A stretch of DNA of 64,000 nucleotides from an uncultured Alphaproteobacteria bacterium (GTDB lineage: Bacteria > Pseudomonadota > Alphaproteobacteria > CAAHEQ01 > UBA3637), in the NCBI GenBank assembly GCA_934202735.1, contig CAKPYH010000004.1:73407-137406 (forward strand), in the 5' to 3' direction. A program made the position numbers and the translations under genes. Each line of letters opens with the position of its first letter. Positions within the stretch are counted from its first letter, which is position 1. Below the pieces are notes generated by a model that ran no database searches, had not been told where the DNA came from, and saw only the letters and a list, made by a program, of their open reading frames with translations. This document shows, one piece after another, positions 1 to 20,520 of the stretch.

Positions 1-131
1 TGTCGTATGGGCTCACCAAATATGGTGGGTGCCGGCGATATAAGGCTTGCTCGAATAAACCGGGCTACTTATCGTGAAATTCGTAGTTTGTAACACCCAC
101 CGCCTATTGTGGCAAAATTTGGTTGGGCTGA

Positions 132-608
132 ATGGGATTTTTTTTGACTATCTGCGCATTTTTTGGCCATCGCGATACTCCGATGTCAAGCAACATAGAA
201 AACCACCTAACAGAGTTTGTTAGGGATTTGATAAATTATCACAAAGTAGATGAATTTTGGCTGTGTGGACAAGGCACGTTTGATTGTTTAGCTCGTCTTG
301 TCATGAAAGAATTAAAAAAAGAATTTAATTGGATCAATCTTTGCATATTTCCCGCATATTATCCCAACAACGCTAAAATGGATTGGATTGAAGACAACGA
401 CTATGATATGATGTATCCTGATGAAGTCGCAAAAGCACCTCCACAAGTCGCTATCTTGCGCCGTAATGATTATATTGCTAAAAATGCTGATTATATCATT
501 TGCTACATCAAACATAATTCAGGTGGAGCATATACGGCAGTCAAACGTGCCGCAAAGAATGAAAAGAAAATAATTAACATAGCAAATACTTCAGATGTTA
601 CGTTCTAA
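132..608 (+). CDS. SLOG-superfamily protein, YpsA/DUF1273-like
   Basis: By-eye alignment to B. subtilis YpsA: ICAFFGHRD ~ LAITGYKP, WLCGQGTFD ~ LISGQLGVE, Rossmann-like layout. Confidence 0.5.
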   Translation: MGFFLTICAFFGHRDTPMSSNIENHLTEFVRDLINYHKVDEFWLCGQGTFDCLARLVMKELKKEFNWINLCIFPAYYPNNAKMDWIEDNDYDMMYPDEVAKAPPQVAILRRNDYIAKNADYIICYIKHNSGGAYTAVKRAAKNEKKIINIANTSDVTF

Positions 609-713
609 CACAATTTTTAATTTGTTTAAAAGGAAAATAATCATTTCCTAATCAAAATCAATGGTACAATATCCGCAAGTAAAAATGTTCCTTCCAATGT
701 AAAACGAATCGTT

Positions 714-1286
714 TTATTCATTTGCCATTAGCTCTTTTTCACTTTGAGGGATAACGTCCTCAACATCATTTACTATTGTCAATAATCGTAATACTTTTAC
801 ACTTAGGAAACCCTCTTTTGCCAGATGTTTTAGTAATTTATAGAAAGGCGTGAAAAAATTATTAATATTCACAATAATTATTGGTTTTTTGATTATTCCT
901 AACTGTTTTAATACCATGAGTTCGGAAATCTCGTCTATTGTACCCAGTCCTCCTGGCAATACACAAAAGACATCTGCCTTTGAAATCATTGAAAACTTAC
1001 GTATAGATAATTTTGAATAAATATGTAGTTCATTAAGGTATTCCTCTTTTGTTAGATCAGGTCGCTCTAAATCAAAAAGCTCTCGAATAGTAAAGCCAAC
1101 GACATAACCTCCATTACTTTTGCAATTTGAAGCAATGAATTTCATTAATCCTGTGTTTCCCGCCCCATAGATCAATTGAATGTTATTTTTTGCCAAAAGA
1201 ACCCCTAAACGTCTAGCGACATTCTCATAGGACACGTTCTTTCCAACCTTACCGCCACAAAATACGCATATCTTTTGTAATTTCAC
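714..1286 (-). CDS. LOG family protein (cytokinin riboside 5'-monophosphate phosphoribohydrolase-like, TIGR00730)
   Basis: YGAGNTGLMKF...GGYVVGF and VLPGGLGTIDEISE (PGGxGTxxE) motifs. Confidence 0.75.
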   Translation of the reverse strand: MKLQKICVFCGGKVGKNVSYENVARRLGVLLAKNNIQLIYGAGNTGLMKFIASNCKSNGGYVVGFTIRELFDLERPDLTKEEYLNELHIYSKLSIRKFSMISKADVFCVLPGGLGTIDEISELMVLKQLGIIKKPIIIVNINNFFTPFYKLLKHLAKEGFLSVKVLRLLTIVNDVEDVIPQSEKELMANE

Positions 1287-1324
1287 TAAATACCCCTTTT
1301 TACATTGTAAAATAGCAGTAAAAA

Positions 1325-1362
1325 AATTTCAACAAAAAGGTTCCTTTTGCTAAAAAGGGACC
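1325..1362 (-). terminator. Putative intrinsic terminator downstream of glyQS
   Basis: Imperfect hairpin ggtcccttt/aaaggaacc followed by T-run on minus strand. Confidence 0.3.
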
Positions 1363-1369
1363 TTTTATA

Positions 1370-2794
1370 TCAATCTCTTTGATGCTGATTGAAAAATTGT
1401 AGTATGCGCTTGGATGATACCGTAAAATCCTGTCTTGTGTAAAAATCATGAATATATTTTGGAAGATTTTCGATTTCAACATTAATCTGTTTCATTGTAT
1501 CACGATCTCTGACTGTAACCGGATGTCGGCTATCTTCTATTGTTGTATTATCTACTGTTACGCATAAAGGAGTGCCTATTTCATCGTGTCTTCGATAAGA
1601 CTTTCCTATACTTCCACTATTTTCTAAAATAATACGGCCGATTCCAAGTTCTTGCAATTCCCTTCTGAGCCGCATTGCTGTCTGAACCATTTGTGGATTA
1701 TTTTTTACAAGAGGAATGATAGCTACCTTTACTGGTGCTATATGTTTTTTAAACTTCATTACCGCTCTGGTTTTTCCATTTTCTAAAGTTTCCTTTGTGT
1801 ATGCTTCATTCATTAAAACGACCATTGCACGATCAAGTCCCGCAGCAGTTTCAACAACAAACGGTATAAATTCTTTGTTGGTTACTGGATCCCTGTAAGA
1901 CATTTTTACCGATGAGTCTGTATTTGGCATAACGCGTGCTTGAATGTCAAAGTTATTTTGGCTCTTTGTATGTGAACCCAGGTCAAAGTCAGTTCTATCG
2001 TGAATCCCTTCAATCTCATCAAACCCCCAGGGGAATTGGTACTCTATATCTTCGGCGGCCTTTGCATAATGCGCTAAAGTAGTGTGTGGTGTTGTTCTTA
2101 ACTTCTTCGGATCAACGCCCTGTTTTACCCACCACTCTATTCTGTTCTTTTTCCATTCGTTAAACCACTTTTCGTCTTCTCCAGGAGGAACAAAGAACTG
2201 CATCTCAGCTTGTTCAAACTCCCTCATTCGAAATAGGAAATTCCTCGGAGTAATTTCATTACGGAATGATTTTCCGTGTTGAGCAATACCAAATGGCAAT
2301 CTTCTGTTCATAGAATTAAGAACATTGATAAAGTTCAAATAACTGCCCTGAGCCGTTTCTGGTCTCAAATACGCAAAACTTGTGCCATCATCAACAGGAC
2401 CAATATTTGTTTTCATCATAAGCATAAACTTACGAGGCTCTGTTAAATCAGAAGAACCACAAGTATCACACTTTGTAGGATCTTTCATTTTATCCTCTCT
2501 CATTCTTGAGTGGCAATGTTTACATTCCACTAGTGGATCAGAAAAGGTATCTTCATGTCCAGAATGTTTCCATACCAATCGGTGTGAAAGATGTGAGCAT
2601 TCGACTCCCTCAATGTCGTCACGTTCATAAATCATGCTCCTCCACCAACTATCACGAATATTTCTTTTAAGCTCTATGCCTAATGGGCCAAGATCATATA
2701 CGCCTTTTAGCCCCCCGTAGATTTCAGAGTTTTGAAAAACAAATCCTCTAGCTTTGGCTAGTGCGACTAATTCTTCCATATTTTCAAAAGCCAT
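1370..2794 (-). CDS. glyQS: Glycine--tRNA ligase, alpha2 homodimeric type
   Basis: N-terminus [22 protein letters not shown] and full length match class II GlyRS (GlyQS type). Confidence 0.9.
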   Translation of the reverse strand: [474 protein letters not shown]

Positions 2795-2932
2795 TTTTTT
2801 CTCCTAAAATTTTACAAAAGACAACAAATATCGTAAAGATAAGCAACATTATATCATATTTTTTATTTATTGTCAACCTTTTTCTTTTTTTTGTATTTTT
2901 TTATAAATATTAACATCCGTTTCACAAATATA

Positions 2933-2960
2933 TTGACAATTTCATAACATCTTATATAAT
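2933..2960 (+). promoter_or_regulatory. Sigma70-like promoter TTGACA-16-TATAAT driving SerRS-like operon; RBS AAGGAG at 2998-3003
   Basis: ttgaca at 2933-2938, tataat at 2955-2960, in divergent intergenic region. Confidence 0.5.
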
Positions 2961-3012
2961 ACCTGCGTATATTTGTAACTTTCTGTTTCTTAAACACAAG
3001 GAGACTCCTCAT

Positions 3013-4233
3013 ATGATATCTCTAAGTTATCTAACGAATTTGACGCATTTCAATGAATTATGTGCTTCTATGCAAGCTCGTAATGCTTTAGATTTATTTA
3101 AAAGTTTTATCGAGCAATATGAGATGCTTTCAAGAGATGCTTCATTTCCGTCATTTCATGAACTTGAAAATAAAGCTCGTTCTATGACGTTGGAAGAAGT
3201 TAATAATCCTAAAGATGCTACATCAAAAATGCTTTCGACATACTTGAGCCTTCCTAATATATCACACAGAATGGTTCCAATCGGAACATCGTCAGCACAA
3301 AATATCATACTAAAAAAATCTAATCCAAAAACTTTTCAAGAAAAAATGGACTACGAACAAATAGCTTCTATTTTTGGAATTTTTTCTCAGAAAATGAATG
3401 AGAACATTGCGGATTCCGGTTTTCCTGTATTGTCTGGTGTCGGACCAAAATTGGAAAGAGCACTCATTGAACTAATGTTAGATCATCACGCAAGATATGG
3501 ATACGACGAAATATCTATGCCAATACTTACTCACGAACGTACATTTTTTATGGCCGGTTCGTTTCCTAAACATCAGCATAATGTGTATAAAATTCAGGAT
3601 ACATCATTGTATTTAAATCCAACGATTGAAATGCAGGAAACAAGTTTAATCAGAAACAGAATATTTGATTTTACAGAACTACCAATGAAGGTTGTTGGCT
3701 TTGCAAGATCATTTAGAATAGAAAAAGGAAGAAGTATGGATTTGTACACAAACCTGCATGAGTTTGGGAAAGTGGAATCTTTTACTGTTTGTCGAGAAGA
3801 TCAATGGGAAGAAGTGTTGAATTTTTTATCTAATATGCTTGAAGATCTTCTAGACAACCTTGGATTCGTATGGAGAAAATTATTACTCTGTACTGGAGAT
3901 ATGGGTCAAGCAGGTTCGTTCACTTGCGACTATGAAATTTGGGCACCGGGTCAAAAAAAATGGTTAGAGATATCGAGCCTGAGTTACCGATCTACTTTTC
4001 AGGCTGTACGGCTTAATGCGATATATCATACACCAGATGGAGAAGAAAAATACGTCCATACTTATAATACACCAGGGTTTGCAATTCCCCGAGTTTTTGC
4101 GGCATTATTGGAGTGTATGTATCAAGATGACGAAACACTCCGTATTCCGGATTGTCTAGTCGGACGTTGTGGATTGCCATCAGTTGTATCTAAAGATACT
4201 TATTTCTCACACTTAACTAAAAACAAAGGATAA
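3013..4233 (+). CDS. Seryl-tRNA synthetase-like class II aaRS paralog (possible amino acid ligase)
   Basis: LLCTGDMGQAGSFTCDYEIWAPGQKKWLEISSLS matches SerRS motif-3 region (LCTGDMGF..YDLEVW..EISSCS); N-terminal arm atypical. Confidence 0.7.
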   Translation: MISLSYLTNLTHFNELCASMQARNALDLFKSFIEQYEMLSRDASFPSFHELENKARSMTLEEVNNPKDATSKMLSTYLSLPNISHRMVPIGTSSAQNIILKKSNPKTFQEKMDYEQIASIFGIFSQKMNENIADSGFPVLSGVGPKLERALIELMLDHHARYGYDEISMPILTHERTFFMAGSFPKHQHNVYKIQDTSLYLNPTIEMQETSLIRNRIFDFTELPMKVVGFARSFRIEKGRSMDLYTNLHEFGKVESFTVCREDQWEEVLNFLSNMLEDLLDNLGFVWRKLLLCTGDMGQAGSFTCDYEIWAPGQKKWLEISSLSYRSTFQAVRLNAIYHTPDGEEKYVHTYNTPGFAIPRVFAALLECMYQDDETLRIPDCLVGRCGLPSVVSKDTYFSHLTKNKG

Positions 4234-4237
4234 AAAT

Positions 4238-4894
4238 ATGAACGATATACATACAAGTGAAAGTTCTGTAAAAGACTATTTTACGGATGTTTATAATGAA
4301 GAGGCTTCCTTAAATAATATTCCTTGGGTTACAGGAGCTGTTGGTATTGAGATATTAAAAAAAGTTATTGGAAAAAAATTTCCATTAGCTTCGAATGTTT
4401 TAGATGTTGGTTGTGGTTTTGGTACCGAGGCTGTTTTCTTGGCTAGACATGGACATCATGTTATTGGAGTTGATACAGACGCCACAATTATAGGCAAGGC
4501 TAAAGAGTACGCAAAGCTTTTAGATACATTTGTTGATTTTAGAGTCTGCAATTTTCTAAAAACCGTTGAACAAAGTGAATTATCCTCTAGATTTGATATA
4601 GTCATTGATCAAGGATGTTTTCATCATATTTTACCTCAAGATAGACAAGCTTATAAAAATGCAGTAGTGCATTGTTTAAAAAACGGTGGCAAGTATTTAA
4701 TGAGAGGTTTTTCAAATCTGATGCCTCCTTCCACCTCCGGGAATGGACCAGTACGATTGACATCCGATGATATTTTAAATACTTTCTTATCTGACTTTTA
4801 CGTAGATGAAATGTACGTATTTGACAATATTCCTGTTGTGGGAAAAGAAGATATGCCTCAAAAATTCTGGTTTGTTTCCTTAACAAAAAGGTAA
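4238..4894 (+). CDS. Class I SAM-dependent methyltransferase
   Basis: VLDVGCGFGTEAVFLA (motif I GxGxG) followed by acidic residue after beta2 (VIGVDTD). Confidence 0.7.
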   Translation: MNDIHTSESSVKDYFTDVYNEEASLNNIPWVTGAVGIEILKKVIGKKFPLASNVLDVGCGFGTEAVFLARHGHHVIGVDTDATIIGKAKEYAKLLDTFVDFRVCNFLKTVEQSELSSRFDIVIDQGCFHHILPQDRQAYKNAVVHCLKNGGKYLMRGFSNLMPPSTSGNGPVRLTSDDILNTFLSDFYVDEMYVFDNIPVVGKEDMPQKFWFVSLTKR

Positions 4895-4898
4895 TTTT

Positions 4899-6182
4899 AT
4901 GAAGAGGATACTTTTTTCGGCACAAGGTTTTGGATTTGGACCAACGGCTAAAGCAGCTGTTGTTGCCACGTGGCTTCAAAAATATAAGTCAGATATTGTA
5001 ATGGATTTCATAGGATCTGGTTCTGCATATGAGTTGGCCCGATCGAGAAAAAGTATTTTTACAAATATATACAATGGCAAACAGTTGGCAACAATTCGGG
5101 AAAAAATTAAAAACAAATATTATGATGCAGTTATTTCTGTTATGGCACCACAAATAACTTTGATAGCTCATGTTTTTCACATTCCTGTCTTTTTAATTGA
5201 TAGTTTGTACTGGTTTTGGGATTGGAGACCTGATCGTATAGATTTCCTTTCGGCATTAAAAATTCAAACTCTTGAAGATATTTCTGCCATTTTTCAACAA
5301 ATACATCCACACGAACAACAATTTTTAGCTCATCGCTATGCATCAATTTCGTATTTGCAGGCTTGTTTTGATGAAGAAAAATCTTCTCGTAATATAAACC
5401 ATATTAAAAGAAAAAAAATTATAGCACCTATAGTAGACACATCTTTTATTTCTAAAAAAGAAAGGAATAATGACAATACCGTGGTTTTAAGTTTTTGTGG
5501 ACAATTTAATCCAATTGTTGATTCTGGAGAAGTATTGGATTATTGCAAACTTGTGCTAGCAGTAACCCGTGATGCATTTATTGACCTTTTGAAAAAAACA
5601 AACAATCGTTTACTTATTATTGGGCATCCTTATGTTATAGAGAATCTCCCTCAAATTATTAAATCACTACAATTTCCTGATGTAGATTGTGAACATCTTT
5701 GCTATCAAGATTACTATAAGACTATTAACTCGGCAGCAGCTATCATTGCTCCACCTTCTTTGACTACTTTCTATGAAAGTTGTGCGTATAACAAATCGTT
5801 AATATTGTTGCCAGAGCAACATGACGGACATTGGCCAAACTTTAAAACAATTACTAGGTATGAGAGGAAAGAAAATACAATTTTCCCTGGAAAAATGTTA
5901 ACACCAATGATAACCGATTTAAATGGGATGAAAGAAAATGATATCAAGTCATTATATAAGAAAATCAGAAGTATAAACGAAAATCAAAATAATTCTCTGT
6001 TTATACAACTTAAAAATGCCTATACACAAATAATTAACGATATTTCGAATGCGAGTTATCGACAAACTCTTATGAAAAAGCAGAAGTTGTATTTTGAACA
6101 TTATTTTTCATTACCGTCTACAAAGGCGGAGGAAATTATATTAGATATCAAGGAGTATCTGAATGAAAGTATTAGGAATTGA
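4899..6182 (+). CDS. GT-B fold glycosyltransferase-like protein (uncertain)
   Basis: N-terminal FGFGP..AKAAVVA and C-terminal IIAPPSLTTFYESCAYNKSLILLP resemble GT1/MurG-like donor-binding region. Confidence 0.3.
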   Translation: MKRILFSAQGFGFGPTAKAAVVATWLQKYKSDIVMDFIGSGSAYELARSRKSIFTNIYNGKQLATIREKIKNKYYDAVISVMAPQITLIAHVFHIPVFLIDSLYWFWDWRPDRIDFLSALKIQTLEDISAIFQQIHPHEQQFLAHRYASISYLQACFDEEKSSRNINHIKRKKIIAPIVDTSFISKKERNNDNTVVLSFCGQFNPIVDSGEVLDYCKLVLAVTRDAFIDLLKKTNNRLLIIGHPYVIENLPQIIKSLQFPDVDCEHLCYQDYYKTINSAAAIIAPPSLTTFYESCAYNKSLILLPEQHDGHWPNFKTITRYERKENTIFPGKMLTPMITDLNGMKENDIKSLYKKIRSINENQNNSLFIQLKNAYTQIINDISNASYRQTLMKKQKLYFEHYFSLPSTKAEEIILDIKEYLNESIRN

Positions 6183-8283
6183 AGGTGAAATTGTTGAAGT
6201 AAAAAAACCAGTTCGCTTGGCTGTCATTGGTTGTGGCAGTCATGTATATAGGAATATTTTACCCTCTATACGCTTTATACCTAATGCTATTATAACTGTT
6301 TTTTGTGATAAGAATACTGAAAAAGCAGAATTATTCGCAAAATATCATGGCGTCGAGACATGGTGCTGTTCAGCGGAAGAATTACTGAAAATGTTCCCAG
6401 AGAAATTTGATGCTTTGTTAGTAATTGTTGGTTTCTCCCCAGATACAGGAAAGCCTTTGTATTCTGAAATTGTCCCATCCTTCCTAAAGCGAGGAATTCC
6501 AGTTTGGATGGAAAAGCCACCCGCAGCATCTTGTGAAGAATTAGCTTCATTTGTGGCTGCTTCTAAACAAGGAAATACCTTTTTCCAGACTGGTTTTAAG
6601 ATGATGTTTGCCCCCGCTCTACAACAAGTAAAAAAATTGATGAATTCTGATAAATTTGGCGTACCTCAATCATTTGATATATCTTATGCAGTTAGTTTTC
6701 CGTCAGACATTCGAGATCTCACAAATATTAATGCTAGAAGGTTCTTAGATGATATTGTCCACATTTTGTCCCAAATACAATTTCTATTTGGATGCCCATA
6801 TAGAATGACAACTTTCAGAGGCGGAGAAAACGATGCTATAGCCATATTAGAGTATAAAAATGGTCTTACTGGTGCCATTCGAATATTAGGTGGAATAAGC
6901 ATTACAGGTCCTGCTGAATATTTAAGAATTGTTGGTACCTGTGATAAAGTAGATAACGGGACTCTTATTGAATTAAAAAACTCCGAAGAAATAACTCTAC
7001 ATGAACCAGGAGATCCTGGCGCTTATGGAAGAGACTTTTCGTTTATTAGAACTGATGGAACACACACACATGTATGGAGCCCAAATCTTAGAAAACCATT
7101 GGGAGCATTGAGTTTACACTCACATTCCTTGTATGGCTATATCAATGAGTTGTCTGCATTTGTAAACAGCGTTGAAAATAAAATTCCATCGATCGTTGCA
7201 GGTATAGAAGATACGCAAGCTATTATGAAAATGTACGATGCGTTTGCCGCAGATAACGCAAAGCCTCATATTCTCTCAAAGAAAATACGCACAAGTACTT
7301 TACCTGATACTATTTCAATTATAGAGGAGTTTACGTGTGACAATTGTTATGGACGTATGTATGTTAAGGATGGCTGGACGGCCAAGTGTGAAAATTGTGG
7401 CAAGACGGTTCAACTAATAAAATTTGAAAATAGATGGTCTCAAACTTCAGTCCGCAGAATTTTAAAGGATGTGTTAGAAAATCTTTCTATTGTTCCAGAG
7501 ACTTTAGATGCATGCCTTAAGTATAATAAGGGTATTGCAAAAGATAATTATAGAAGATGTTTTGTTGATCTTCGCGTAAAGAAAAACGCAAAGAAAACTT
7601 ATGATTATTTTATAAAAATAGCAAAAAATCCGAATGATATCTTTCCAGAGACTGAATATAAAGCTTTATCTCTGTTAAAAAGTCTTCCCTTTGTTCCTTC
7701 TGTATATGGGAAACCAAATCCTAAATATATTATTCAGCAATATATTGATGGCATAACTCTTTATTCGTTATTGAAAACAAATTTTGAGTCCTGCAAAGAT
7801 ATTCTATTAAAATCGGTAAAATGTTTGGCTGATTTTCATAAGACCTTTCGAAAAAGTGGTAAAAAACCATTTGGGTATGTCCATGGAGATATAGATCCGT
7901 GGCAAATTATTGTAGAAAAAGATGGTAATATAACAATTATAGATTGGGAAGACTTTAAAAAGGATGGTAATCAAATACATGACATCTTAAATTTTGTATT
8001 CATGGTTGGTGTTATTTATCTAGGTGAGAATACATCTGCTAAAGAAAAAGCAGAAATAATTCTGTATCAGAAATCGAAATTAACTGAATTAATTTTTGAC
8101 ATGCTTTCTACTTATTCCGAGGAAACATTAATCCCTGTAAAAGACATAATTGATGAGATTCCATGTTATGCTAAAAATCGGCTTATTAGACTTCAAAAAA
8201 TGTCAAGACCATCTGAAAATTTCATATATTCCTACCTTTTAAACGTTTGCAAAAAGGATATTGTATGGAAGAAAACCCAATAA
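6163..8283 (+). CDS. Fusion protein: Gfo/Idh/MocA NAD(P) oxidoreductase + zinc ribbon + APH/ChoK-like kinase domain
   Basis: N-terminus VRLAVIGCGSHVYRNILPS Rossmann; CDNCYG..CENCGK ribbon; YVHGDIDPWQIIV..IIDWED kinase catalytic/DFG-like motifs. Confidence 0.6.
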   Translation: MKVLGIEGEIVEVKKPVRLAVIGCGSHVYRNILPSIRFIPNAIITVFCDKNTEKAELFAKYHGVETWCCSAEELLKMFPEKFDALLVIVGFSPDTGKPLYSEIVPSFLKRGIPVWMEKPPAASCEELASFVAASKQGNTFFQTGFKMMFAPALQQVKKLMNSDKFGVPQSFDISYAVSFPSDIRDLTNINARRFLDDIVHILSQIQFLFGCPYRMTTFRGGENDAIAILEYKNGLTGAIRILGGISITGPAEYLRIVGTCDKVDNGTLIELKNSEEITLHEPGDPGAYGRDFSFIRTDGTHTHVWSPNLRKPLGALSLHSHSLYGYINELSAFVNSVENKIPSIVAGIEDTQAIMKMYDAFAADNAKPHILSKKIRTSTLPDTISIIEEFTCDNCYGRMYVKDGWTAKCENCGKTVQLIKFENRWSQTSVRRILKDVLENLSIVPETLDACLKYNKGIAKDNYRRCFVDLRVKKNAKKTYDYFIKIAKNPNDIFPETEYKALSLLKSLPFVPSVYGKPNPKYIIQQYIDGITLYSLLKTNFESCKDILLKSVKCLADFHKTFRKSGKKPFGYVHGDIDPWQIIVEKDGNITIIDWEDFKKDGNQIHDILNFVFMVGVIYLGENTSAKEKAEIILYQKSKLTELIFDMLSTYSEETLIPVKDIIDEIPCYAKNRLIRLQKMSRPSENFIYSYLLNVCKKDIVWKKTQ

Positions 8284-9731
8284 AAAAGTATGATACAATA
8301 ATTATTGGAGCAGGTCCAGCAGGGGCATTTTCGGCAATTTCATTAGCAAAAAGAGGCCTTAATGTCTTATTGTTGGAAAAAGGTGGAACTTTTTCGGACA
8401 ATTTATGCAAACATTTTGTAAAGCAATCATTCGATTCATCTTTAAAAGAACCCTATTGTTGTCATCAACAATGTTTGTCTGGATTTGGAGGAGCGGCTCT
8501 CCATTTTGAAGCCAATTTCGATAATTATCCTTATAACAATAATATTGATAAGCAGCGTATAAAAGACTTCACATTTTCTTCTTCTCTACAATCCGTTCTT
8601 GGTGAAAAAACTGAATTATATATTTCAAAATTCTATGATTTTATGTTTGATGCAGCTTTGGAAAAAACGGACACATTCTCGATAGATTCTGTTTCTCACT
8701 ACGTCAAAATTAGTTCATCAGGAACAATCCCTGTAAATTTAGCGAATATAAGAAAAATAGTAACTTGTTTAGAAAAAAACATTATACTATATAAAGTTCA
8801 ATACTTGACGAAGAGAAATGTTACGACTATTCAGCGAACAGGAAATTATTTTTTAGTTTCGTGTTTAAGAGATGGTGGAATATCCGGAGATGAAAATAGT
8901 GAAAGTGAACTTTTCCTTGGAAGTACCGTAATAGTCGCTACGGGGTATCGTAGTATGCCTTTTGTATTTAATTTAATCAAAGAACATAAATTAAGTCATA
9001 CTTTTCCAGATGATGTTGAATTAGGATTTAGGCTTGAAACTCCATCAGTTTATGCAGAAAAAATACTGGGCACTCAATATAATCCAAGAGTTAAGAGTCT
9101 TTGTGGAAAACACAGGACTTTTTGTATCTGTTCTGGTGGACGAATAATGAAATATCCATTTTCATGGGAAAGCAAAAATTTTGTTCTAGACGGACAACAC
9201 GCATATACACAGAAAGGAAATAAAACGAATTTTTCCCTATTATCTAAAGTCAAAGTTCCCGCAAATAAAAACAGTTATGAATACGTACATGATTTTGTGG
9301 AAAGCGCTAATAAACTAACACCTGGTTTCATCCCTGTTCAAAAATTACTTGATTACATAAACAAAAAAGCATCATCACAGAAAGAAATTGAGAAGCTATC
9401 TCTAACAATTTGCGGTTGTTCGGCAACGAATTTATTATCTCTAGTCCAAAAATATTCTATTCAACTTGATTGGTTTTTATCTTTTGCTAACGATATGTTA
9501 CCCAAACCAAAAGAATTTTACGATTCAACACTTTTGTTAGCTCCATCGGTTGTTAAATATGCACCTAGAATTTCTTTAAATGGAACTGAGAGCAGCATTA
9601 AAGGATTATATTTTATTGGAGATGCCTGTGGCTTAGTTTCTGGAATTTCTGCGGCTGGTGCAATGGGATTAATGGCCGCAGATCAAATTATAGAAAGTAA
9701 ATTAAAAAAAGGAGATTTTCATAATGAATAA
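8247..9731 (+). CDS. FAD-dependent oxidoreductase (HI0933/COG2509-like)
   Basis: YDTIIIGAGPAGAFSAISLAKRGLNVLLLEKGG dinucleotide-binding motif; ~490 aa. Confidence 0.6.
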   Translation: MQKGYCMEENPIKKYDTIIIGAGPAGAFSAISLAKRGLNVLLLEKGGTFSDNLCKHFVKQSFDSSLKEPYCCHQQCLSGFGGAALHFEANFDNYPYNNNIDKQRIKDFTFSSSLQSVLGEKTELYISKFYDFMFDAALEKTDTFSIDSVSHYVKISSSGTIPVNLANIRKIVTCLEKNIILYKVQYLTKRNVTTIQRTGNYFLVSCLRDGGISGDENSESELFLGSTVIVATGYRSMPFVFNLIKEHKLSHTFPDDVELGFRLETPSVYAEKILGTQYNPRVKSLCGKHRTFCICSGGRIMKYPFSWESKNFVLDGQHAYTQKGNKTNFSLLSKVKVPANKNSYEYVHDFVESANKLTPGFIPVQKLLDYINKKASSQKEIEKLSLTICGCSATNLLSLVQKYSIQLDWFLSFANDMLPKPKEFYDSTLLLAPSVVKYAPRISLNGTESSIKGLYFIGDACGLVSGISAAGAMGLMAADQIIESKLKKGDFHNE

Positions 9732-10914
9732 TACTATGTCTTTTTTATATCCCGTCCTAACTGAAAAACATTTATCTGCTATCCAGAAATGCTTCTTGGA
9801 AAATGACATATCGTTTCCAAAAGAAAATGGTATTACACGAGTACTAGAAGAAAAACTGAAACAGTTTTTTGGTGTTGATTATTTATTAACGATGAACAAT
9901 GGAACTTCTACTCTTCATTCTGCTTTTTTTGCAATCGGGGATGGATTTAATCCCTCAAAAGCCTTAGAAGGCAAAGAATTATTGTGTCCTTCTTATACTT
10001 GGTGGGCCTCAATTTTACCAGCAGTTAATTGTGGAGCTACAATTAATTTTGTCGAGATTAATGAAGAGACTTTAACTATGGATCCTCAAGATGTAGAAAG
10101 AAAAATTAACAGCAAAACGGCGGCAATTGTTATTCCTCACCTCTTTGGACAAGTTTCGAATTTAGATGAAATAGGTCATATTTCAAAATCACATCATATT
10201 CCAGTAATTGAAGACGCATCTCATGTTTTGGGATCTTATTGGAGAAATAAACCTGTTGGAACACTTTTTGATATAGGTTGCTTTAGTATGCAAGCTGGAA
10301 AGCCTTTATGCGCCGGAGAGGGAGGAATTTTTTTAACAAAGAACAAGCGTTATTATGAACGCGCACTACTATTAGGTCATTATGAAAGGGCTAGAAAAGC
10401 GTTAACTTCTTTTGTTGATTATGCACATATTGGGCTTGGATTTAAATACAGAATCAGTCCTCTTTCTGCTGCACTAGCTTGTGTTGAATTTGATGAATTA
10501 GTAGATCGGTTAAGAAAAGAAAACGAACTTCACAAAACGTTCTATTCAGCCTTAGAAAAAATTCCTTTCATCAAAGTGCCAAGACAAAATTCTTCTCTTT
10601 TTCAGCCAGGAGGACATTTCAGCTATAGAGTCTTAATAGACATGGAAGATCTTTCGATATCCAAAGAGAGTTTGATATCAATATTGAATAAGAGGAGGGT
10701 TCCTTTTGAAAATGAATTCTATCCTCTCCTCCACACATTTAAAGCATTCGAGGATAAAGCTGTAAATTTTGGGTATGGAAAATTAGCAAGAACAGAGGCT
10801 CTTTACAAAAATTCCTTTGCAATGCCTATCTTTCGTGTGGGCACATCTACAGAGGCAATTTTAAAGTGTGTAGAAACTTTAGAAAAAACGCTATCAGAGT
10901 TTAGAAAAAAGTGA
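9724..10914 (+). CDS. DegT/DnrJ/EryC1/StrS family PLP-dependent aminotransferase
   Basis: Typical DegT layout; AAIVIPHLFGQ, IPVIEDASH, FSMQAGKPLCAGEGG motifs. Confidence 0.8.
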   Translation: MNNTMSFLYPVLTEKHLSAIQKCFLENDISFPKENGITRVLEEKLKQFFGVDYLLTMNNGTSTLHSAFFAIGDGFNPSKALEGKELLCPSYTWWASILPAVNCGATINFVEINEETLTMDPQDVERKINSKTAAIVIPHLFGQVSNLDEIGHISKSHHIPVIEDASHVLGSYWRNKPVGTLFDIGCFSMQAGKPLCAGEGGIFLTKNKRYYERALLLGHYERARKALTSFVDYAHIGLGFKYRISPLSAALACVEFDELVDRLRKENELHKTFYSALEKIPFIKVPRQNSSLFQPGGHFSYRVLIDMEDLSISKESLISILNKRRVPFENEFYPLLHTFKAFEDKAVNFGYGKLARTEALYKNSFAMPIFRVGTSTEAILKCVETLEKTLSEFRKK

Positions 10915-11058
10915 TCTGTATACCAGCTACATGGTTAATTTGCGTAATTGACTACACAAAAACTTACTCAACTGACCGACTTATGAGAACATGAGATGGA
11001 GTAGAACTACCTGAAATTAAGTGATCTTGCCCGTATAAACCAATCAATTTTTATGAGA

Positions 11059-13128
11059 TCAAACTATAAATTGGTGCATTAAGCTTGATATGTCCCCCAA
11101 AAGGTAAACTCTGTTCCTGTGTTCTTCATTATTATCCTTTGATAAGATCATGTTATTATCAAAAAACACGTTAACTAATTTACAGCACCCATACATAACA
11201 TTGACAAAAGAAATATAATCACTTTCCTTTAAATGATTTTTTGCCAAATCTTTAACCTTATTATATGCATCAAAAACAGCTTGCTCATCAGGATTTTCAA
11301 TCAAAGTAGCATTGAATGTTTGTTGTCTTTCTTCTTTTGATATTAAGTTATCAATTCGTTGTAACGTTTGTGTGAAGGTTTGAAATTGCTCCGTAGAAAG
11401 TAAAGACGTAATGGTTGAAGCTTTCTTTTCAATTGTAACAACATTAATAGAGGATAAATCAATTCTATTAATCACGTCCGTAATAGAATATTTTAAATCC
11501 TCAGCCAACATAATGGACAGACGTTGTTTACTGAAAGAAATTACATAATTAACGAACTCTTCTTTTGTCGTTTTTTCCATGGTATAGAAATCATGATAAA
11601 GATCGGCAAGTTGAGAAACAACATCACTCAATGTCAGATCAAAATTAAATTTACGTATTATTGATAAAACACCAATAGTCAAACGTCGTAAGGCAAAAGG
11701 ATCTTGAGACCCTGTAGGTCTTAAATTTACAGCACATAAACCCAGAATAGTATCCAGTTTATCTGAAATAGCCATAACAGCTCCAAATTCAGATTTAGGT
11801 AACATATCATTAGCAAAACAGGGGCGATATTGATCTTCAATAGCGCAGCTTATTTCTTCGGAGTATCCTTCTTCTCTTGCATAAATTCCTCCCATAATTC
11901 CCTGAAGTTCTGAAAATTCACCAACAACGGCAGAAACTAAATCAGCTTTAAAAATTGGAGTAATAGTATTAATATTTTCCGATAAATTAAGTTTCAATTC
12001 TTTAGCCAAATAATTAGCAATTTTAGAAACTCGTTTCATTTTTTCTACGTAATTACCAAGCTTTGTCTGAAATATGACATTAACCAACTTTTTAGACTTA
12101 TCCATAAGAGTTGTATTTTTATCCTCTTTATAGAAAAATTCGCCATCCTTTAAACGTGCTGTTAGCACGCGTTGGTTTCCTTTGATGACATTCTCCATGC
12201 AGTAATTATCACCGTTTCTGACAAAGACAAACTGATTTATGAGCTTTCCATCCTTATAAACAGGAAAATATCTTTGATGATCTTTCATTGGGGTAATAAT
12301 AATAGGATCTGGAAGAGACAAAAATGATCTATCAAAATAGCCAACGGCAACAGTTGGATATTCAACGAGGTTTACAATCTCTTCTAACAGATCATCATCA
12401 ACAGAAACTTGAATACCATTATCAGATTCAATTTTTTTAATTTGTTGTAAAATTAAATTTTTCCTTTCTTTTTGATCAATAATAACAAAAGCTTTTTTCT
12501 GTTGTTCAAAATAGTTATCAACAGAGGAAACATCAAATGGCATGTCAGCCAAAGTCCGATGTCCAAATGTAAAATTTGAACTTGATAAAAACTCCAAGGA
12601 GAAATTAAGAGAAGTCTTTCCTAAAAAAGCTAACACCCATCGAATAGGACGTATAAATTTACCAACAAAAACATTCCAACGCATAGGATTCGGTTGATAA
12701 ATGGACATTATAAGTTTTGGTAGAACATTTTCTAATACAGATATGGTATTCTTGGCAGCTGTTTTTTGTTTTGCAAAAATATAATCTACCCCTTTGATCG
12801 CAGCAATATAAGTATCTTCAATCTTTAACTTTCTGCCTTGTAAAAAACCCTCAAAGGCTTTAGTTATATTTCCATGTTCATCATAAGCATTTGCCTTTGC
12901 AGGTCCTTTTATATCCAGTTCTTGTTCAGAAATCTGTGTAGCAATAGAACTTATATATAAAACCAACCTTCTAGGAGTGTGAAAAACCTGTAATCCATCA
13001 AACAATATTAAATTATCTACAAGTGCCTTTTCTATGTTTTCTTTCAAACTATTAGCCATATCTTTTACATACTGAGCTGGAATTTCCTCAATTCCAATTT
13101 CGAGTACAAATTTATCTTGTGACATCAT
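11059..13128 (-). CDS. glyS: Glycine--tRNA ligase beta subunit
   Basis: 689 aa, N-terminus MSQDKFVLEIGIEEIPAQYV typical of GlyS; immediately downstream of glyQ. Confidence 0.9.
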   Translation of the reverse strand: MMSQDKFVLEIGIEEIPAQYVKDMANSLKENIEKALVDNLILFDGLQVFHTPRRLVLYISSIATQISEQELDIKGPAKANAYDEHGNITKAFEGFLQGRKLKIEDTYIAAIKGVDYIFAKQKTAAKNTISVLENVLPKLIMSIYQPNPMRWNVFVGKFIRPIRWVLAFLGKTSLNFSLEFLSSSNFTFGHRTLADMPFDVSSVDNYFEQQKKAFVIIDQKERKNLILQQIKKIESDNGIQVSVDDDLLEEIVNLVEYPTVAVGYFDRSFLSLPDPIIITPMKDHQRYFPVYKDGKLINQFVFVRNGDNYCMENVIKGNQRVLTARLKDGEFFYKEDKNTTLMDKSKKLVNVIFQTKLGNYVEKMKRVSKIANYLAKELKLNLSENINTITPIFKADLVSAVVGEFSELQGIMGGIYAREEGYSEEISCAIEDQYRPCFANDMLPKSEFGAVMAISDKLDTILGLCAVNLRPTGSQDPFALRRLTIGVLSIIRKFNFDLTLSDVVSQLADLYHDFYTMEKTTKEEFVNYVISFSKQRLSIMLAEDLKYSITDVINRIDLSSINVVTIEKKASTITSLLSTEQFQTFTQTLQRIDNLISKEERQQTFNATLIENPDEQAVFDAYNKVKDLAKNHLKESDYISFVNVMYGCCKLVNVFFDNNMILSKDNNEEHRNRVYLLGDISSLMHQFIV

Positions 13129-13140
13129 TTAAAAACTCCT

Positions 13141-13983
13141 CTAACATTCTTTTGACAAATACAATTTTGCAATTTCTTTCATTACATTTCTAATACGAGC
13201 AATATAATTAGCGCGCTCAGTCACACTAATAGCTCCTTTAGCATCTAACACATTAAAGGTATGGGAACATTTTAAGGCAAAATCATATGCAGTATATATG
13301 TTTTCTAAAGCCACCAACCGTTTTGCTTCTTTTTCGTAATTATTAAAGTCCAACAAAAGTTGTTTATCGTCGCATAGTTCAAAACAATACTTAGAATGAT
13401 CATATTCTCTCTGATGATAAATCTCCCCATATGTTTCTGCAGGACTGTACTGAAGATCGTATACATTTTCAACATTTTGAAGATACATTGCTATTCTCTC
13501 AAGTCCATAGGTAATTTCTACGGTAATTGGCTTACATGTCATTCCCCCAATTTCCTGAAAGAATGTAAACTGGGTAATCTCCATTCCATCTAACCATACC
13601 TCCCATCCTTTTCCAAAAGCCCCAAGAGTTGGAGATTCCCAATTGTCTTCGACGAACCTAATGTCGTGTTCTTTCTTATTAAATCCAATAAACTCAAGGC
13701 TTTTAATATAAATGTCGACAATATCTATCGGAGAAGGTTTTATAATAACTTGAAATTGGTGATGTTGATAAAGACGGTTAGGATTATCTCCATAACGTCC
13801 ATCAGCAGGACGTCTTGAAGGTTCAACGTATGCTCGCGCAAGCTTTTTATTTCCGAGCGAGCCAAAAAACGTCAAGGGATTCATAGTACCTGCACCCTTT
13901 TCAACATCGTATGGTTCCCCAATGGTGCACCCTTGTTCTTTCCAAAAATCACGTAGTTTTAATTTTAGTTCCTGAAAATCCAT
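13141..13983 (-). CDS. glyQ: Glycine--tRNA ligase alpha subunit
   Basis: [35 protein letters not shown] matches GlyQ. Confidence 0.9.
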
Positions 13984-14093
13984 CGTTTACCTCGTCAAAA
14001 TATAAAATCTCTTAGGATGATACACAAAAATAAGCCACTTGTCAATAATTTAGTAAAAAAATCCATTTATTTTTAACACATACAGATAACATA

Positions 14094-14291
14094 TTAAAGA
14101 AATTCACATAAATCATCGTAAACCACATTGTTTCTATCAATTTGACGGACAGTTTCCGGGGTGTCGTGTTCATAATCCGCATACACAGGTTCGTATAAAA
14201 GGCAAAAATCACCGTTTATATTTGTTGTGCAACCGCTTAACGCGCTTAAGGCTAGCCAGGCTATCCCGACTTCTTTTAGCTGTTTTGACAT
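14094..14291 (-). CDS. o-spanin (Rz1-like outer-membrane lipoprotein)
   Basis: Signal peptide plus lipobox LSGC; start embedded out of frame in 3' half of upstream Rz-like ORF. Confidence 0.5.
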   Translation of the reverse strand: MSKQLKEVGIAWLALSALSGCTTNINGDFCLLYEPVYADYEHDTPETVRQIDRNNVVYDDLCEFL

Positions 14292-14430
14292 TGTCCATTG
14301 CTCCTTTCATGACTTTCACTTGTTCTGTTTCCTTGCCGCGCCGATAGCCGAGTATGTATAAAACAGCCACGGCTCCGGCGATTATCCAATATTTTGTTTT
14401 ATTCCAAGCTGTCATTATGAGTGTTAACAT
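14209..14430 (-). CDS. i-spanin (Rz-like), short
   Basis: N-terminal TM helix WIIAGAVAVLYILGY then charged periplasmic segment; overlaps Rz1-like gene. Confidence 0.4.
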   Translation of the reverse strand: MLTLIMTAWNKTKYWIIAGAVAVLYILGYRRGKETEQVKVMKGAMDNVKTAKRSRDSLASLKRVKRLHNKYKR

Positions 14431-14459
14431 TATTTTTTCCTTTCTTTTTTTGAATTGAT

Positions 14460-14993
14460 ATGTTACTTTCTCCTCAGGAGTATAAAATGAAAATACAATT
14501 ACGTCCTTTACGCCAACACGAAACGGAAGATGTGTATCTTCTTTTTCAAGCTATTCCAGCACAGGAGGAAGGTTTTGATAATTTTGCAAACGGCTTGTCA
14601 AAAACGGATTTTGAAAAGTTTATTTTACATAACATCGATCGGGCAAATGGTGTTGGGCTTGATAAAGGGTATTTAAGCCACACAATTTACATATTTTTTA
14701 TTGATGGGAAACCTGTTGGTATTTCCAAAATCAGGACCTATTCTGACAACACCCTATTAAAACGCGGCGGGCATATTGGTTGCGCAATCAGTCCCGCTTT
14801 CAGAGGAAAAGGCTACGGCACCTTATTGCTGGCCGAAACCATAAAAGAGGCTCACAAAAAAGGACTAAAAGACATTTTAATGGGATGTTATAGCAGCAAT
14901 TTACCCTCTAGTCATATGATTGAGAAGAATGGTGGTGTATTAGAAGAAAAAAGCAACAACATTTCATGGTATTGGATAAAACCAAAGACTTAA
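14460..14993 (+). CDS. GNAT family N-acetyltransferase (moron inside lysis cassette)
   Basis: GHIGCAISPAFRGKGYGTLLL acetyl-CoA binding motif; AT-rich, opposite strand to phage genes. Confidence 0.75.
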   Translation: MLLSPQEYKMKIQLRPLRQHETEDVYLLFQAIPAQEEGFDNFANGLSKTDFEKFILHNIDRANGVGLDKGYLSHTIYIFFIDGKPVGISKIRTYSDNTLLKRGGHIGCAISPAFRGKGYGTLLLAETIKEAHKKGLKDILMGCYSSNLPSSHMIEKNGGVLEEKSNNISWYWIKPKT

Positions 14994-15214
14994 TTTCGTT
15001 CCAAAAGTTTGTTATTTGATAGCACATCTTGTGTTTTTCTTTTCTTTAATCCAATATCTCGTGCGCCACTGACACCGAGTAAAATGCCCATGGCCGTTAA
15101 TAAATATTCCCAGTCTACTACCGGCAGGCCCGTTATAGGTGCGATCAGGCAGTTATGGAGGAATCCATAACACAGGATCCACCCGAGGACCGGGATCCAA
15201 AGCCGCTTTTTCAT
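14990..15214 (-). CDS. Holin-like protein (two TM helices, charged C-terminus)
   Basis: Two hydrophobic helices plus KKRK-rich tail; immediately downstream of endolysin candidate. Confidence 0.45.
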   Translation of the reverse strand: MKKRLWIPVLGWILCYGFLHNCLIAPITGLPVVDWEYLLTAMGILLGVSGARDIGLKKRKTQDVLSNNKLLERN

Positions 15215-18265: not shown

Positions 18266-18643
18266 TTATTCATAATTTTCTAATTCGGTTGTTAATGATT
18301 CCACAATCCGATCTTTTTCTTTTTTAGATAATGTTTTTACATTATCTCTAATATGATTTCTTAAAGAAAGCAGATCTTCATAATCTAGATTTCCAACAAC
18401 TTTGGCATTTTTAATTTCATTAGGTTCAAAATGAAAAACTCTATTGCAAGATACAAAACTATCATGTTCTAGGTAATTATTCTTTTTTTTAGCCAAAGGC
18501 ATACATTCATATAATTTTCTATTTAAAGAATTTATACAAAAGAATAAATTATCGTCAACTACAACACAAACAGAGTATTTATAATTGCTAGGAATAATTT
18601 GCTTATTAAAAAGATACAGGACGTTTCCAATTTCTAATGCCAT
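18266..18643 (-). CDS. Putative toxin partner of Panacea-domain protein (unknown fold)
   Basis: 125 aa, AT-rich, start 2 nt after stop of upstream Panacea gene. Confidence 0.3.
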   Translation of the reverse strand: MALEIGNVLYLFNKQIIPSNYKYSVCVVVDDNLFFCINSLNRKLYECMPLAKKKNNYLEHDSFVSCNRVFHFEPNEIKNAKVVGNLDYEDLLSLRNHIRDNVKTLSKKEKDRIVESLTTELENYE

Positions 18644-19716: not shown

Positions 19717-20520
19717 TTAATTAATTATAGTTTTTACGATATTAATGAGTGCAGAGATAAGGTAGTAAAGAGATGTAAATGCAATAACTCCACCGATAAA
19801 AGGATTTGTATGAAAAAAATTAAAAAAAGCAAAAAGATATCCACCATTTAATTGCCAATAAGAAGTATTTGTTTTTAAGTGGTTATCAGCCACCCTCTGC
19901 AAAATGTTTGCAAAAATATCAACTTTTCTTAGCGTTGATTGATGAAGTTTAATATAATTTTTTTCTTCAAAAGCTTGAGCCTCTTCTTCTCCAGACAAAA
20001 AATTTGTATCAGTTATTTTATTTTTTTTCACTATAGAAAAAAGACGTGGGTGCTCTATATAACCAACGCCATATGCATCTATCAATAAACGAGCCAGATC
20101 CTGTTTCTTATCATCTTGTATAACATATGGTTTTCCACCTAAGATTTTATAACGTAATTCAATGGCTGCAAAACCAAAATTTTCATCTCGCATATTCCAA
20201 TGAACGAATGTTTTATCTTCATTTTTGTGTACAAAATCATAAAATCTTTTGAGCATAGATTTTTCCAGTTTGTCGTAAGATTTTTCTATTTTCCTCTTAT
20301 CTATGGCTTGTAACTCTGCTTCCTTGTGTATAGAAAAAGAACGTGTTTGACCATCATTTAATTTCCTCACAGCTATAGATGTTATTTTCGGTGAGCTACC
20401 ATCTGTGCGATCATAGAAACTTTCACAAGAATAATGTATGAGTAAAACGTTTTTAGAATCCGCCATCAAAGTTCTGATCTGAGCTAAAGCATCTTTTCTT
20501 CTTTTTAAATTGATTTTCAT
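19717..20520 (-). CDS. AT-rich moron: unknown cytosolic domain plus C-terminal two-TM hairpin (candidate abortive-infection effector)
   Basis: C-terminus GGYLFAFFNFFHTNPFIGGVIAFTSLYYLISALINIV; no recognisable motifs in N domain. Confidence 0.3.
   Translation of the reverse strand: MKINLKRRKDALAQIRTLMADSKNVLLIHYSCESFYDRTDGSSPKITSIAVRKLNDGQTRSFSIHKEAELQAIDKRKIEKSYDKLEKSMLKRFYDFVHKNEDKTFVHWNMRDENFGFAAIELRYKILGGKPYVIQDDKKQDLARLLIDAYGVGYIEHPRLFSIVKKNKITDTNFLSGEEEAQAFEEKNYIKLHQSTLRKVDIFANILQRVADNHLKTNTSYWQLNGGYLFAFFNFFHTNPFIGGVIAFTSLYYLISALINIVKTIIN

Follow-up and report, generated by a model that had tools for sequence, protein, structure and literature searches.

Two structurally different glycyl-tRNA synthetase (GlyRS) systems, both complete, lie within one 13-kb stretch of DNA from an uncultured gut alphaproteobacterium, on either side of a six-gene operon of biosynthetic appearance. 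The DNA analyzed here, referred to as the window, comprises 64,000 nucleotides of contig CAKPYH010000004.1 (assembly GCA_934202735.1, positions 73,407 to 137,406 of the forward strand). GlyRS ranks among the most stably single-copy aminoacyl-tRNA synthetases (aaRSs; PMC5388404). Comparison with related loci suggests that one of the two enzymes, which we call GlyQS-L, is probably tied to the operon functionally in some way. The genes of the two systems are the following:

1370-2794, minus strand: GlyQS-L, an α2-type (class IIa, dimeric) GlyRS of 474 amino acids (aa), identified by family models and structure matches
11059-13128, minus strand: glyS, β subunit of the α2β2 GlyRS, 689 aa; TIGR00211, 699.9 bits (cut-off 300)
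13141-13983, minus strand: glyQ, α subunit of the α2β2 GlyRS, 280 aa; NF006827, 441.5 bits (cut-off 369)

A first-pass annotation of this DNA had claimed two different complete GlyRS systems within 13 kb. The open reading frames (ORFs) of both lie exactly where that annotation had put them, and the coordinates, equivalog models and structure matches all agree with the claim. GlyQS-L passes the dimeric GlyRS equivalog models (NF003211, 547.6 bits with a cut-off of 312; TIGR00389, 443.6 bits with a cut-off of 243) and consists, according to Pfam, of a class II core (PF00587) and a C-terminal HGTP anticodon-binding domain (PF03129). The T. thermophilus GlyRS structures 1ATI and 1B76 align with its residues 4-449 (E 4e-152), motif 2 (REFEQ.E) is conserved, and a C-terminal tail of ~20 aa sets it apart from its nearest relatives of 449-455 aa. 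The glyQ and glyS genes are adjacent and co-directional, separated by a 12-bp gap, and each passes its own equivalog model; GlyQ is 91-93% identical to its relatives, with the GlyRS alpha subunit 8ie2 as its top match in the Protein Data Bank (PDB; E 1e-114). The operon (3013-10914, plus strand) is thus flanked by GlyQS-L on one side and by glyQ-glyS on the other. The label ‘fused-type’, which the annotation had given to the 474-aa enzyme, was wrong. An αβ-fusion GlyRS (PRK14908 type, ~1000 aa) could be rejected, as the protein matches neither the α nor the β family, and the fusion model NF011499 (cut-off 1244) drew only 449 and 554 bits, from the separate glyQ and glyS. The class IIa α2 GlyRS is evolutionarily unrelated to the α2β2 enzyme and binds glycine through different residues (PMC4938167).

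Both systems have been maintained. GlyQS-L retains 156 of the 161 positions that are conserved at ≥95% among its relatives, and the only clade-specific changes at conserved positions are D160N and R438S; it looks functional as a working glycyl-tRNA synthetase. Between the window and a sister species, the nonsynonymous divergence (dN) is 0.085 for GlyQS-L, 0.041 for glyQ and 0.19 for glyS, with synonymous divergence (dS) saturated. Judged from these values, both systems have been under purifying selection since the two species split.

The annotation had further placed both systems in AT-rich DNA, which the base composition bears out. An AT-rich block at approximately 1-15000 (GC 0.32-0.39; GC at third codon positions, GC3, 0.21-0.35) includes GlyQS-L (GC/GC3 0.39/0.31), glyS (0.32/0.23) and glyQ (0.36/0.28), all far below the window's core genes for RNase J, Obg, DnaB and RNase PH (GC 0.47-0.53, GC3 0.49-0.53).

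The six genes enclosed by the two systems read in one direction:

3013-4233, plus strand: SerL, an arm-less paralogue of seryl-tRNA synthetase (SerRS); serS model TIGR00414, 238.4 bits (cut-off 301.65), no Seryl_tRNA_N domain (PF02403)
4238-4894, plus strand: S-adenosylmethionine-dependent methyltransferase, TPMT-like; Pfam Methyltransf_25/31/11 and TPMT
4899-6182, plus strand: GT-B-like glycosyltransferase of 427 aa, a distant relative of cytosylglucuronate (CGA) synthase; no Pfam match, TIGR04467 with E 1.8e-7
6163-8283, plus strand: Gfo/Idh/MocA sugar dehydrogenase fused to an APH/RIO-like kinase; PF01408, RIO1 and APH
8247-9731, plus strand: flavin adenine dinucleotide (FAD)-dependent protein, HI0933-like; domain matches
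9724-10914, plus strand: DegT/DnrJ/EryC1 sugar aminotransferase; PF01041, 222 bits

SerL keeps an intact class II catalytic core, with no variation at the residues of motifs 2 and 3. In its AlphaFold2 model (pLDDT 85.6, exceeding 90 in the N-terminal 100 residues), short helices replace the long coiled-coil tRNA-binding arm, and the top structural matches are bacterial SerRS cores. A canonical SerRS was rejected for this gene because the score is under the serS cut-off, PF02403 is absent and the model has no arm. An amino acid:[carrier protein] ligase (Mocibob 2010) was rejected as well: the nearest sequences and folds are of the bacterial SerRS type, not the methanogen type, and the operon holds no carrier-protein gene. 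SerL is instead predicted to be an amide-forming aminoacyl ligase.

Among the remaining genes, the aminotransferase is conserved across all related cassettes, and the methyltransferase is present wherever the pair of a canonical aaRS and SerL occurs. The PDB matches of the MocA-kinase fusion are sugar 3-ketoreductases and dehydrogenases. The glycosyltransferase, whose single-sequence AlphaFold model reaches a pLDDT of 35, was classed through its homologues. Its family counts 373 representatives, some of them fused to LOG-like, DegT or MocA domains; 50 of 56 sampled members matched TIGR04467, with a best E of 9e-25 and all under the model's cut-off. CGA synthase is the enzyme that, on the way to blasticidin, mildiomycin and gougerotin, couples a free pyrimidine base with UDP-glucuronate.

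The association between a canonical synthetase and this cassette recurs beyond the window. In the sister species, whose proteins are 62-93% identical to those of the window, GlyQS-L (87% identical) heads the same six-gene operon and reads in its direction, and glyS-glyQ stand at the opposite end; GlyQS-L and the operon have thus stayed linked through an inversion and in spite of a changed left flank. In a distant lineage (L016/L100), an α2 GlyRS is followed by SerL, the methyltransferase, an interposed IS110, a fusion of the glycosyltransferase to a SLOG domain, MocA, the kinase and DegT, at 41, 37.5, 36, 31, 38, 35 and 41% identity to the window along the collinear cassette. Here, a single base separates the GlyRS stop codon from the start codon of SerL, and the GC3 of the GlyRS gene (0.23) is that of the island, not that of the host (0.38). 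As this GlyRS falls far outside the alphaproteobacterial radiation, it was recruited independently. A third arrangement (L108, 360-9124) combines a full-length SerRS with Seryl_tRNA_N and a methyltransferase, divergent from SerL, the glycosyltransferase, MocA, the kinase, DegT and a CYTH-NUDIX fusion, so that the slot for a canonical aaRS can hold SerRS instead of GlyRS. The MocA and kinase halves are separate genes in both L016 and L108, and the FAD gene, found in all three alphaproteobacterial cassettes, is absent from these two. In sum, three lineages have, each on its own, acquired a canonical aaRS next to SerL.

The third alphaproteobacterial cassette (L099, JAEEGL011929739.1) stands directly 5' of, and co-directional with, glyQ-glyS, is preceded by an ADP-ribosylglycohydrolase gene and has host-like GC (0.44-0.50); no α2 GlyRS was found within 10 kb of it. 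A close relative (L014), 89% identical in nucleotides over glyQ-glyS, is without exactly this segment: L099 7892-17914 corresponds to L014 8988-9071, a presence/absence difference of ~10 kb 5' of glyQ that consists of a 196-aa ORF, the ADP-ribosylglycohydrolase gene and the six-gene cassette. Among the window, the sister species and L099, the divergence of GlyS runs parallel to that of the cassette proteins, and glyQ-glyS is linked to the operon in all three, AT-rich together with the cassette in two species and GC-normal in L099. The three-species comparison suggests that the adjacency of cassette and glyQ-glyS is old in this family, GlyQS-L being either a later addition or lost in L099.

The partner synthetase appears to have left a mark on SerL itself. 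Six positions before the motif 3 arginine lies a residue that we take to correspond to Thr380 of T. thermophilus SerRS, a binder of the serine hydroxyl. The aligned residue is Pro in both groups of GlyRS-linked SerL, and Ser or Thr in SerRS-linked SerL, in unlinked SerL and in canonical SerRS. The two GlyRS-linked groups are not sister to each other: their joint monophyly was recovered in 0 of 60 bootstraps, while in 60/60 the L016 group clustered with unlinked SerL. With Pro present in two non-sister GlyRS-linked groups, the SerL pocket appears to track the partner synthetase.

With respect to their origins, the nearest relatives of all three GlyRS genes are found in uncultured gut or rumen Alphaproteobacteria. 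Phylogenetic placement of each copy, which the first-pass annotation had proposed as a check, nests the α2 enzyme in a radiation of Enterousia-like bacteria and glyQ-glyS in its own family clade. Relatives of GlyS at 56-64% identity come from metagenome-assembled genomes (MAGs) labeled ‘Alphaproteobacteria bacterium’, in three of which glyQ-glyS sits in housekeeping surroundings, with GC3 like that of its flanks and no cassette. In a neighbor-joining tree of GlyS, the window and the sister species group together on a somewhat longer branch, as sister to part of the family clade; identity to outgroup members (56-58%) is close to that to other ingroup members (58-63%). The glyQ-glyS pair is most plausibly this gut alphaproteobacterial family's own translation enzyme, passed on by vertical descent. 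Beyond the gut alphaproteobacterial clade (≥56%), the next GlyS relatives, at 38-43%, belong to Clostridia and Bacilli and not to typical Alphaproteobacteria. An old Firmicutes origin of the family's glyQ-glyS could explain this, as could compositional or word-search bias; the homologue search was word-based and sensitive to composition, which makes the Firmicutes origin a lead only.

The α2 radiation comprises Candidatus Enterousia and allied gut alphaproteobacteria, where the α2 enzyme is the housekeeping GlyRS; in one such locus (L010) it adjoins ffh-rpsP-rimM-trmD-rplS and has host-like GC3. We retrieved 80 loci of this radiation from GTDB by α2 GlyRS patterns and inspected ±10 kb around the gene: glyQ, glyS or the cassette occurred within 10 kb in 0 of the 80. 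GlyQS-L and seven clusters with a C-terminal tail of ~15-25 residues form a monophyletic ‘long-form’ clade inside the radiation, and recruitment of GlyQS-L from Enterousia-like bacteria offers the best explanation of its sequence relationships. Native carriage of both types, raised by the first-pass annotation against its own reading, was found in the sister species only; elsewhere, in other family relatives and in the 80 α2-bearing genomes, only one type was found within ±10 kb. The annotation had also offered three options, namely that one copy serves resistance, that it is dedicated to a pathway, or that the region is a mosaic of two donors. Comparative evidence supports a functional tie of the α2 copy to the operon and the two systems do differ in origin, but in three species glyQ-glyS, too, has the operon beside it. 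No core gene is common to the window and the related loci, which leaves the GlyRS trees without a species tree for comparison.

Other members of the GlyQS-L clade keep company with aaRS paralogues of a different kind. In L008 (3142-10268), L011 (6834-11434) and L020 (2868-5606), the gene adjoins an AlaRS-catalytic-domain-like protein (353-369 aa) and an S66 (MccF/LdcA-family) peptidase, which are divergent from the GlyRS. L008 additionally holds an AspRS/LysRS-like paralogue of 338 aa, an HD protein, a methyltransferase and a second S66 peptidase, and L011 a HIT protein; in the two loci that allow the comparison, L008 and L011, the module genes are AT-rich relative to the flanking core genes. 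S66 (MccF), HIT (MccH) and GNAT (MccE) proteins are known immunity families against aminoacyl-nucleotide inhibitors of aaRSs (PMC8323819). The AlaRS-like/S66 module may be a second pathway built on an aaRS paralogue or an immunity island.

Beside these loci, we observed a second type of SerL cluster in environmental metagenomes (L015 8704-19124, L017 9435-20493, L102-L106, L109). Its genes encode radical SAM, Fe-ADH_2, QueC (preQ0), PIG-L deacetylase, DegT, GT4, MocA, rRNA-adenine methyltransferase (RrnaAD) and GNAT proteins, in some cases also FolE2/QueD/QueE and APH. By gene content, it looks like an antibiotic cluster of the aminoglycoside or 7-deazapurine type with self-resistance genes, which supports an antibiotic-like context in general.

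The operon and the GlyRS genes of the window are surrounded by the following further genes and promoters, the latter called by consensus match only:

132-608, plus strand: YpsA-like SLOG protein, a weak match (PF06908, E 1.9e-4, under cut-off)
714-1286, minus strand: LOG-family (TIGR00730) nucleotide N-glycosidase-like protein; TIGR00730, 145 bits (cut-off 96), PF03641 and PF18306
2848-2876, minus strand: sigma-70 promoter facing GlyQS-L, TTGACA-17-TATAAT with extended TG, 12/12
2933-2960, plus strand: sigma-70 promoter facing the operon, TTGACA-16-TATAAT, 12/12, 53 bp 5' of the SerL start codon
14017-14045, minus strand: sigma-70 promoter 5' of glyQ, 11/12
14460-14993, plus strand: small GNAT acetyltransferase (phrog_1249 acetyltransferase), GC 0.376, at the right edge of the AT-rich block

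Two perfect promoters thus stand back to back in the 218-bp divergent gap between GlyQS-L and SerL. They are nearly mirror-symmetric, with inverted repeats at 2848-2862/2946-2960 and 2869-2883/2926-2940; the divergent control region 2848-2960 showed no operator-like element. A T-box, other Rfam elements or a tRNA-Gly were found neither in the window nor in 12 related loci. The LOG-family protein is a candidate for the release of free base, and base-releasing hydrolases accompany most cassettes: LOG in the window, SLOG and Nuc_deoxyrib_tr in L016, ADP-ribosylglycohydrolase in L099. The SLOG gene at 132-608, inside the AT-rich block, was seen only in this species and not in the sister species or L099. 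Small GNATs recur in related clusters, and the one at 14460-14993 may act in immunity or tailoring.

Taken together, the predicted enzymes make an aminoacylated amino-hexosyl nucleoside the most likely product of the operon. A LOG-type hydrolase would release the free base, which the CGA-synthase-like glycosyltransferase would couple to a hexose; the MocA dehydrogenase and the DegT aminotransferase would then place an amino group on the sugar, SerL would acylate this amine, and the methyltransferase, the kinase and the FAD enzyme would tailor the product. We consider the chances about even that GlyQS-L acts in the manner of AbmK from the albomycin pathway, that is, by supplying activated glycine to the arm-less ligase and probably conferring immunity too. 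By analogy with AbmK/AbmF, GlyQS-L would make Gly-AMP or Gly-tRNA for transfer by SerL. Being structurally unrelated to the α2β2 GlyRS, it would probably also keep translation going if the glycyl-nucleoside mimics Gly-AMP. At the gene level (identities, conserved linkage, phylogeny, purifying selection and composition) the case is solid; the product and the donor and immunity roles of GlyQS-L are inferred. A bolder proposal goes further and is, as a whole, rather doubtful: loci of gut and environmental bacteria with a canonical aaRS (GlyRS or SerRS) and an arm-less SerRS paralogue would form a new class of clusters for aminoacyl-aminohexosyl nucleosides that mimic aminoacyl-adenylates, the product of the window would be the first natural GlyRS inhibitor, and the producer would protect itself by owning two unrelated GlyRS types, through bypass of the target type and not through mutation.

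Several observations weigh against a dedicated role of GlyQS-L in such a pathway. The cassette of L099, with no α2 GlyRS within 10 kb, implies that at least one genome can do without GlyQS-L. Its active site is not remodeled, unlike that of divergent resistant synthetases such as AbmK. The glyQ-glyS pair is as AT-rich as the island, and a third GlyRS with core-like GC may lie elsewhere in the genome. As for the chemistry, the glycosyltransferase scores 30.7 bits on TIGR04467, far under the 300-bit cut-off for CGA synthases, conservation of the LOG gene does not extend to the sister species or L099, and no recognized aminoacyl-tRNA transferase (Fem/GNAT-pair, CDPS, LanB) is present at the locus.

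Some of these points fit an explanation in which GlyQS-L contributes to supply only. The operon would then make a ribosome-targeting, gougerotin- or blasticidin-like peptidyl hexosyl nucleoside with Ser (from SerL) and Gly or sarcosine (from GlyRS and the methyltransferase), and GlyQS-L would raise the pool of activated glycine while no synthetase is inhibited. The gene set indeed parallels gougerotin, which consists of 4-amino-CGA, Ser and a Gly N-methylated to sarcosine, but the gougerotin pathway itself uses no aaRS (PMC12835213). RrnaAD and APH in related SerL clusters are typical of ribosome-targeting antibiotics, whereas the S66 and HIT proteins beside GlyQS-L relatives belong to families known for immunity to aminoacyl-nucleotides. 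In favor of supply alone are the precedent of the synthetase VlmL, the unremarkable active site of GlyQS-L and the L099 operon, which is simply co-directional with a housekeeping glyQ-glyS. Against it, no enzyme at the locus is recognizably able to use Gly-tRNA, and Pro at the Thr380 equivalent, precisely in the GlyRS-linked groups, suggests that SerL handles glycine and not serine. We regard supply without inhibition as possible but unlikely.

A horizontally acquired xenologue caught amid the non-orthologous displacement of glyQ-glyS, or the reverse, would give the position of GlyQS-L no functional meaning. Synthetase xenologues are common and arise mostly by horizontal transfer (PMC5388404), both systems sit in compositionally foreign DNA, and L099 does without GlyQS-L. 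Mere coincidence is nonetheless improbable, given the purifying selection on both systems over a span in which dS has saturated, the canonical aaRS beside SerL in three independently acquiring lineages, the aaRS paralogues that invariably adjoin members of the GlyQS-L clade, and a consensus promoter of its own placed back to back with that of the operon. Less probable still is that the operon adds amino acids to a cell-surface glycan or lipid, with no diffusible antibiotic and with the GlyRS genes feeding tRNA-dependent aminoacylation of the envelope. Pathways for O-antigen and capsule sugars typically employ DegT, MocA, glycosyltransferase and methyltransferase genes, and cell-wall bridges in other bacteria use Gly-tRNA (PMC4574755); but the locus encodes neither a flippase or polymerase nor a polyprenyl-phosphate or Fem/MprF-type transferase, the family nearest to the glycosyltransferase, CGA synthase, takes a nucleobase as acceptor, and the glycosyltransferase occurs fused to LOG/SLOG domains. 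The APH-like kinase, the rRNA methyltransferases of sibling clusters and the nucleotide-acting Nuc_deoxyrib_tr, CYTH and NUDIX proteins added in L016 and L108 likewise speak against an envelope function. Finally, the strikingly mosaic GC along the window might recall a chimeric contig that joins two organisms with different GlyRS types, but we consider this artifact very improbable indeed: the identical α2 protein in the same arrangement was assembled independently on contigs of up to 146 kb from at least five gut-type metagenome samples, as well as in an NCBI MAG, and the sister species keeps the arrangement at 62-93% protein identity per gene.

The rest of the window adds context to the island. 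Its right third carries chromosomal housekeeping genes. On the other side, the contig left of the window (L001 14136-21425) encodes a P-type cation ATPase, DUF3850, NUDIX, two Ham1-like proteins, GNAT, a SKI/ASCH protein and SecDF; since the ATPase and SecDF have core-like GC (0.44-0.47), we place the left edge of the AT-rich island ~1.3-1.5 kb before window position 1. A decayed lambda-like prophage occupies 15211-46218 on the minus strand and ends at a tRNA-Lys(UUU) (46519-46594). Lysin, TipJ, minor tail proteins and a terminase nuclease fragment (42867-43484) are recognizable, and both the tape measure gene (25212-27056 and 24472-25125) and the portal gene (39936-40649 and 39132-39905) are split. 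The prophage contains AT-rich insertions, and ORFs with a GC of 0.25-0.34 (18266-18643, 19717-20520, 27690-29321, 31737-34274, 36951-37697, 37988-39052) alternate gene by gene with phage ORFs at 0.45-0.49. Among the AT-rich ORFs are those for an ASCH protein, a UvrD-like helicase and a Fic/HTH protein, and one that is reverse-transcriptase-like. Because the prophage remnant also borders glyQ in the sister species (L018), it is old and fixed, not an active vehicle. That the operon is phage cargo was rejected, as this adjacent prophage is decayed and shared with the sister species, and a search of IMG/VR returned no relative of the cassette (SerL) or of GlyQS-L. DNA searches with block 1-14500 gave no match in plasmid or phage collections, apart from trivial short matches to gut phage fragments, and the core end of the window had no match among E. 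coli genomes. An anti-phage defense system was also rejected, the PADLOC matches being to generic domains only.

Neither a natural GlyRS inhibitor nor a GlyRS resistance copy or a pathway-dedicated GlyRS appears in the aaRS reviews consulted here (PMC5388404, PMC8323819), and GlyQS-L would be the first pathway-linked synthetase known for glycine. It shows the features of a cluster-embedded aaRS, being a second synthetase of the same specificity whose linkage to biosynthetic-like genes is conserved across taxa. The locus provides a concrete and testable case from a human-gut commensal, in which an extra GlyRS of another structural type is tied to an uncharacterized nucleoside-type operon, and a natural system for comparing the inhibitor responses of two convergent GlyRS types. 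Should the AbmK/AbmF-like logic hold, a canonical aaRS beside an arm-less aaRS paralogue could serve as a genome-mining rule for aaRS-directed antibiotics, and the warhead amino acid could be read from the partner synthetase.

Of the known systems, albomycin is the one our proposal leans on. There, the aaRS-like AbmF couples an aminonucleoside with serine by means of seryl-adenylate from AbmK, a full-length, product-insensitive SerRS encoded in the cluster that also confers immunity; a seryl-tRNA donor is not excluded, and AbmF homologues generally adjoin SerRS genes (PMC9032320, PMC8323819, PMC9092360). Both loci place a canonical aaRS beside an aaRS-like protein that lacks the tRNA-binding apparatus, and both include a methyltransferase, which in albomycin acts on the nitrogen of the nucleobase. 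The likeness is one of architecture: none of the SerL homologues bears the name AbmF, and no sequence comparison with AbmF itself was made. In contrast to albomycin, made by Streptomyces, the amino acid here would be glycine and not serine, the sugar enzymes are a CGA-synthase-like glycosyltransferase, MocA and DegT and not the thioheptose enzymes AbmH/D/J, the window has no siderophore module, and the host is a gut alphaproteobacterium. Nor does GlyQS-L diverge markedly from its housekeeping relatives, as AbmK does; it is of another structural type than the host enzyme.

The remaining parallels are partial. VlmL of the valanimycin cluster is likewise a paralogous class II aaRS in a biosynthetic cluster, where it solely supplies the aminoacyl donor, but its partner VlmA is a Fem/MprF-type transferase that uses seryl-tRNA; our locus has no such transferase and pairs the synthetase with SerL. 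Gougerotin, blasticidin S and mildiomycin share with the proposed pathway a base joined to an NDP-hexose by a CGA-synthase-type enzyme, oxidation and transamination to a 4-amino sugar, and amide-linked amino acids, yet these are activated by CoA/GNAT chemistry or other ligases and not by aaRS-type enzymes, and the glycosyltransferase described here is a distant relative. Genomes with both class I and class II LysRS (Bacillus cereus group, Streptomyces) also keep two unrelated enzymes for one amino acid, which is rare (39 of ~2,500 genomes; PMC5388404), but the amino acid differs, and descriptions of the LysRS pair do not place it around a biosynthetic operon. As in the self-resistance copies MupM (IleRS), BorO (ThrRS), AgnB2 (LeuRS) and AbmK (SerRS), a second synthetase of the same specificity stands beside biosynthetic genes; whereas those are resistant variants of the same type, the protection proposed here would come from a bypass of the target type, α2 in place of α2β2.

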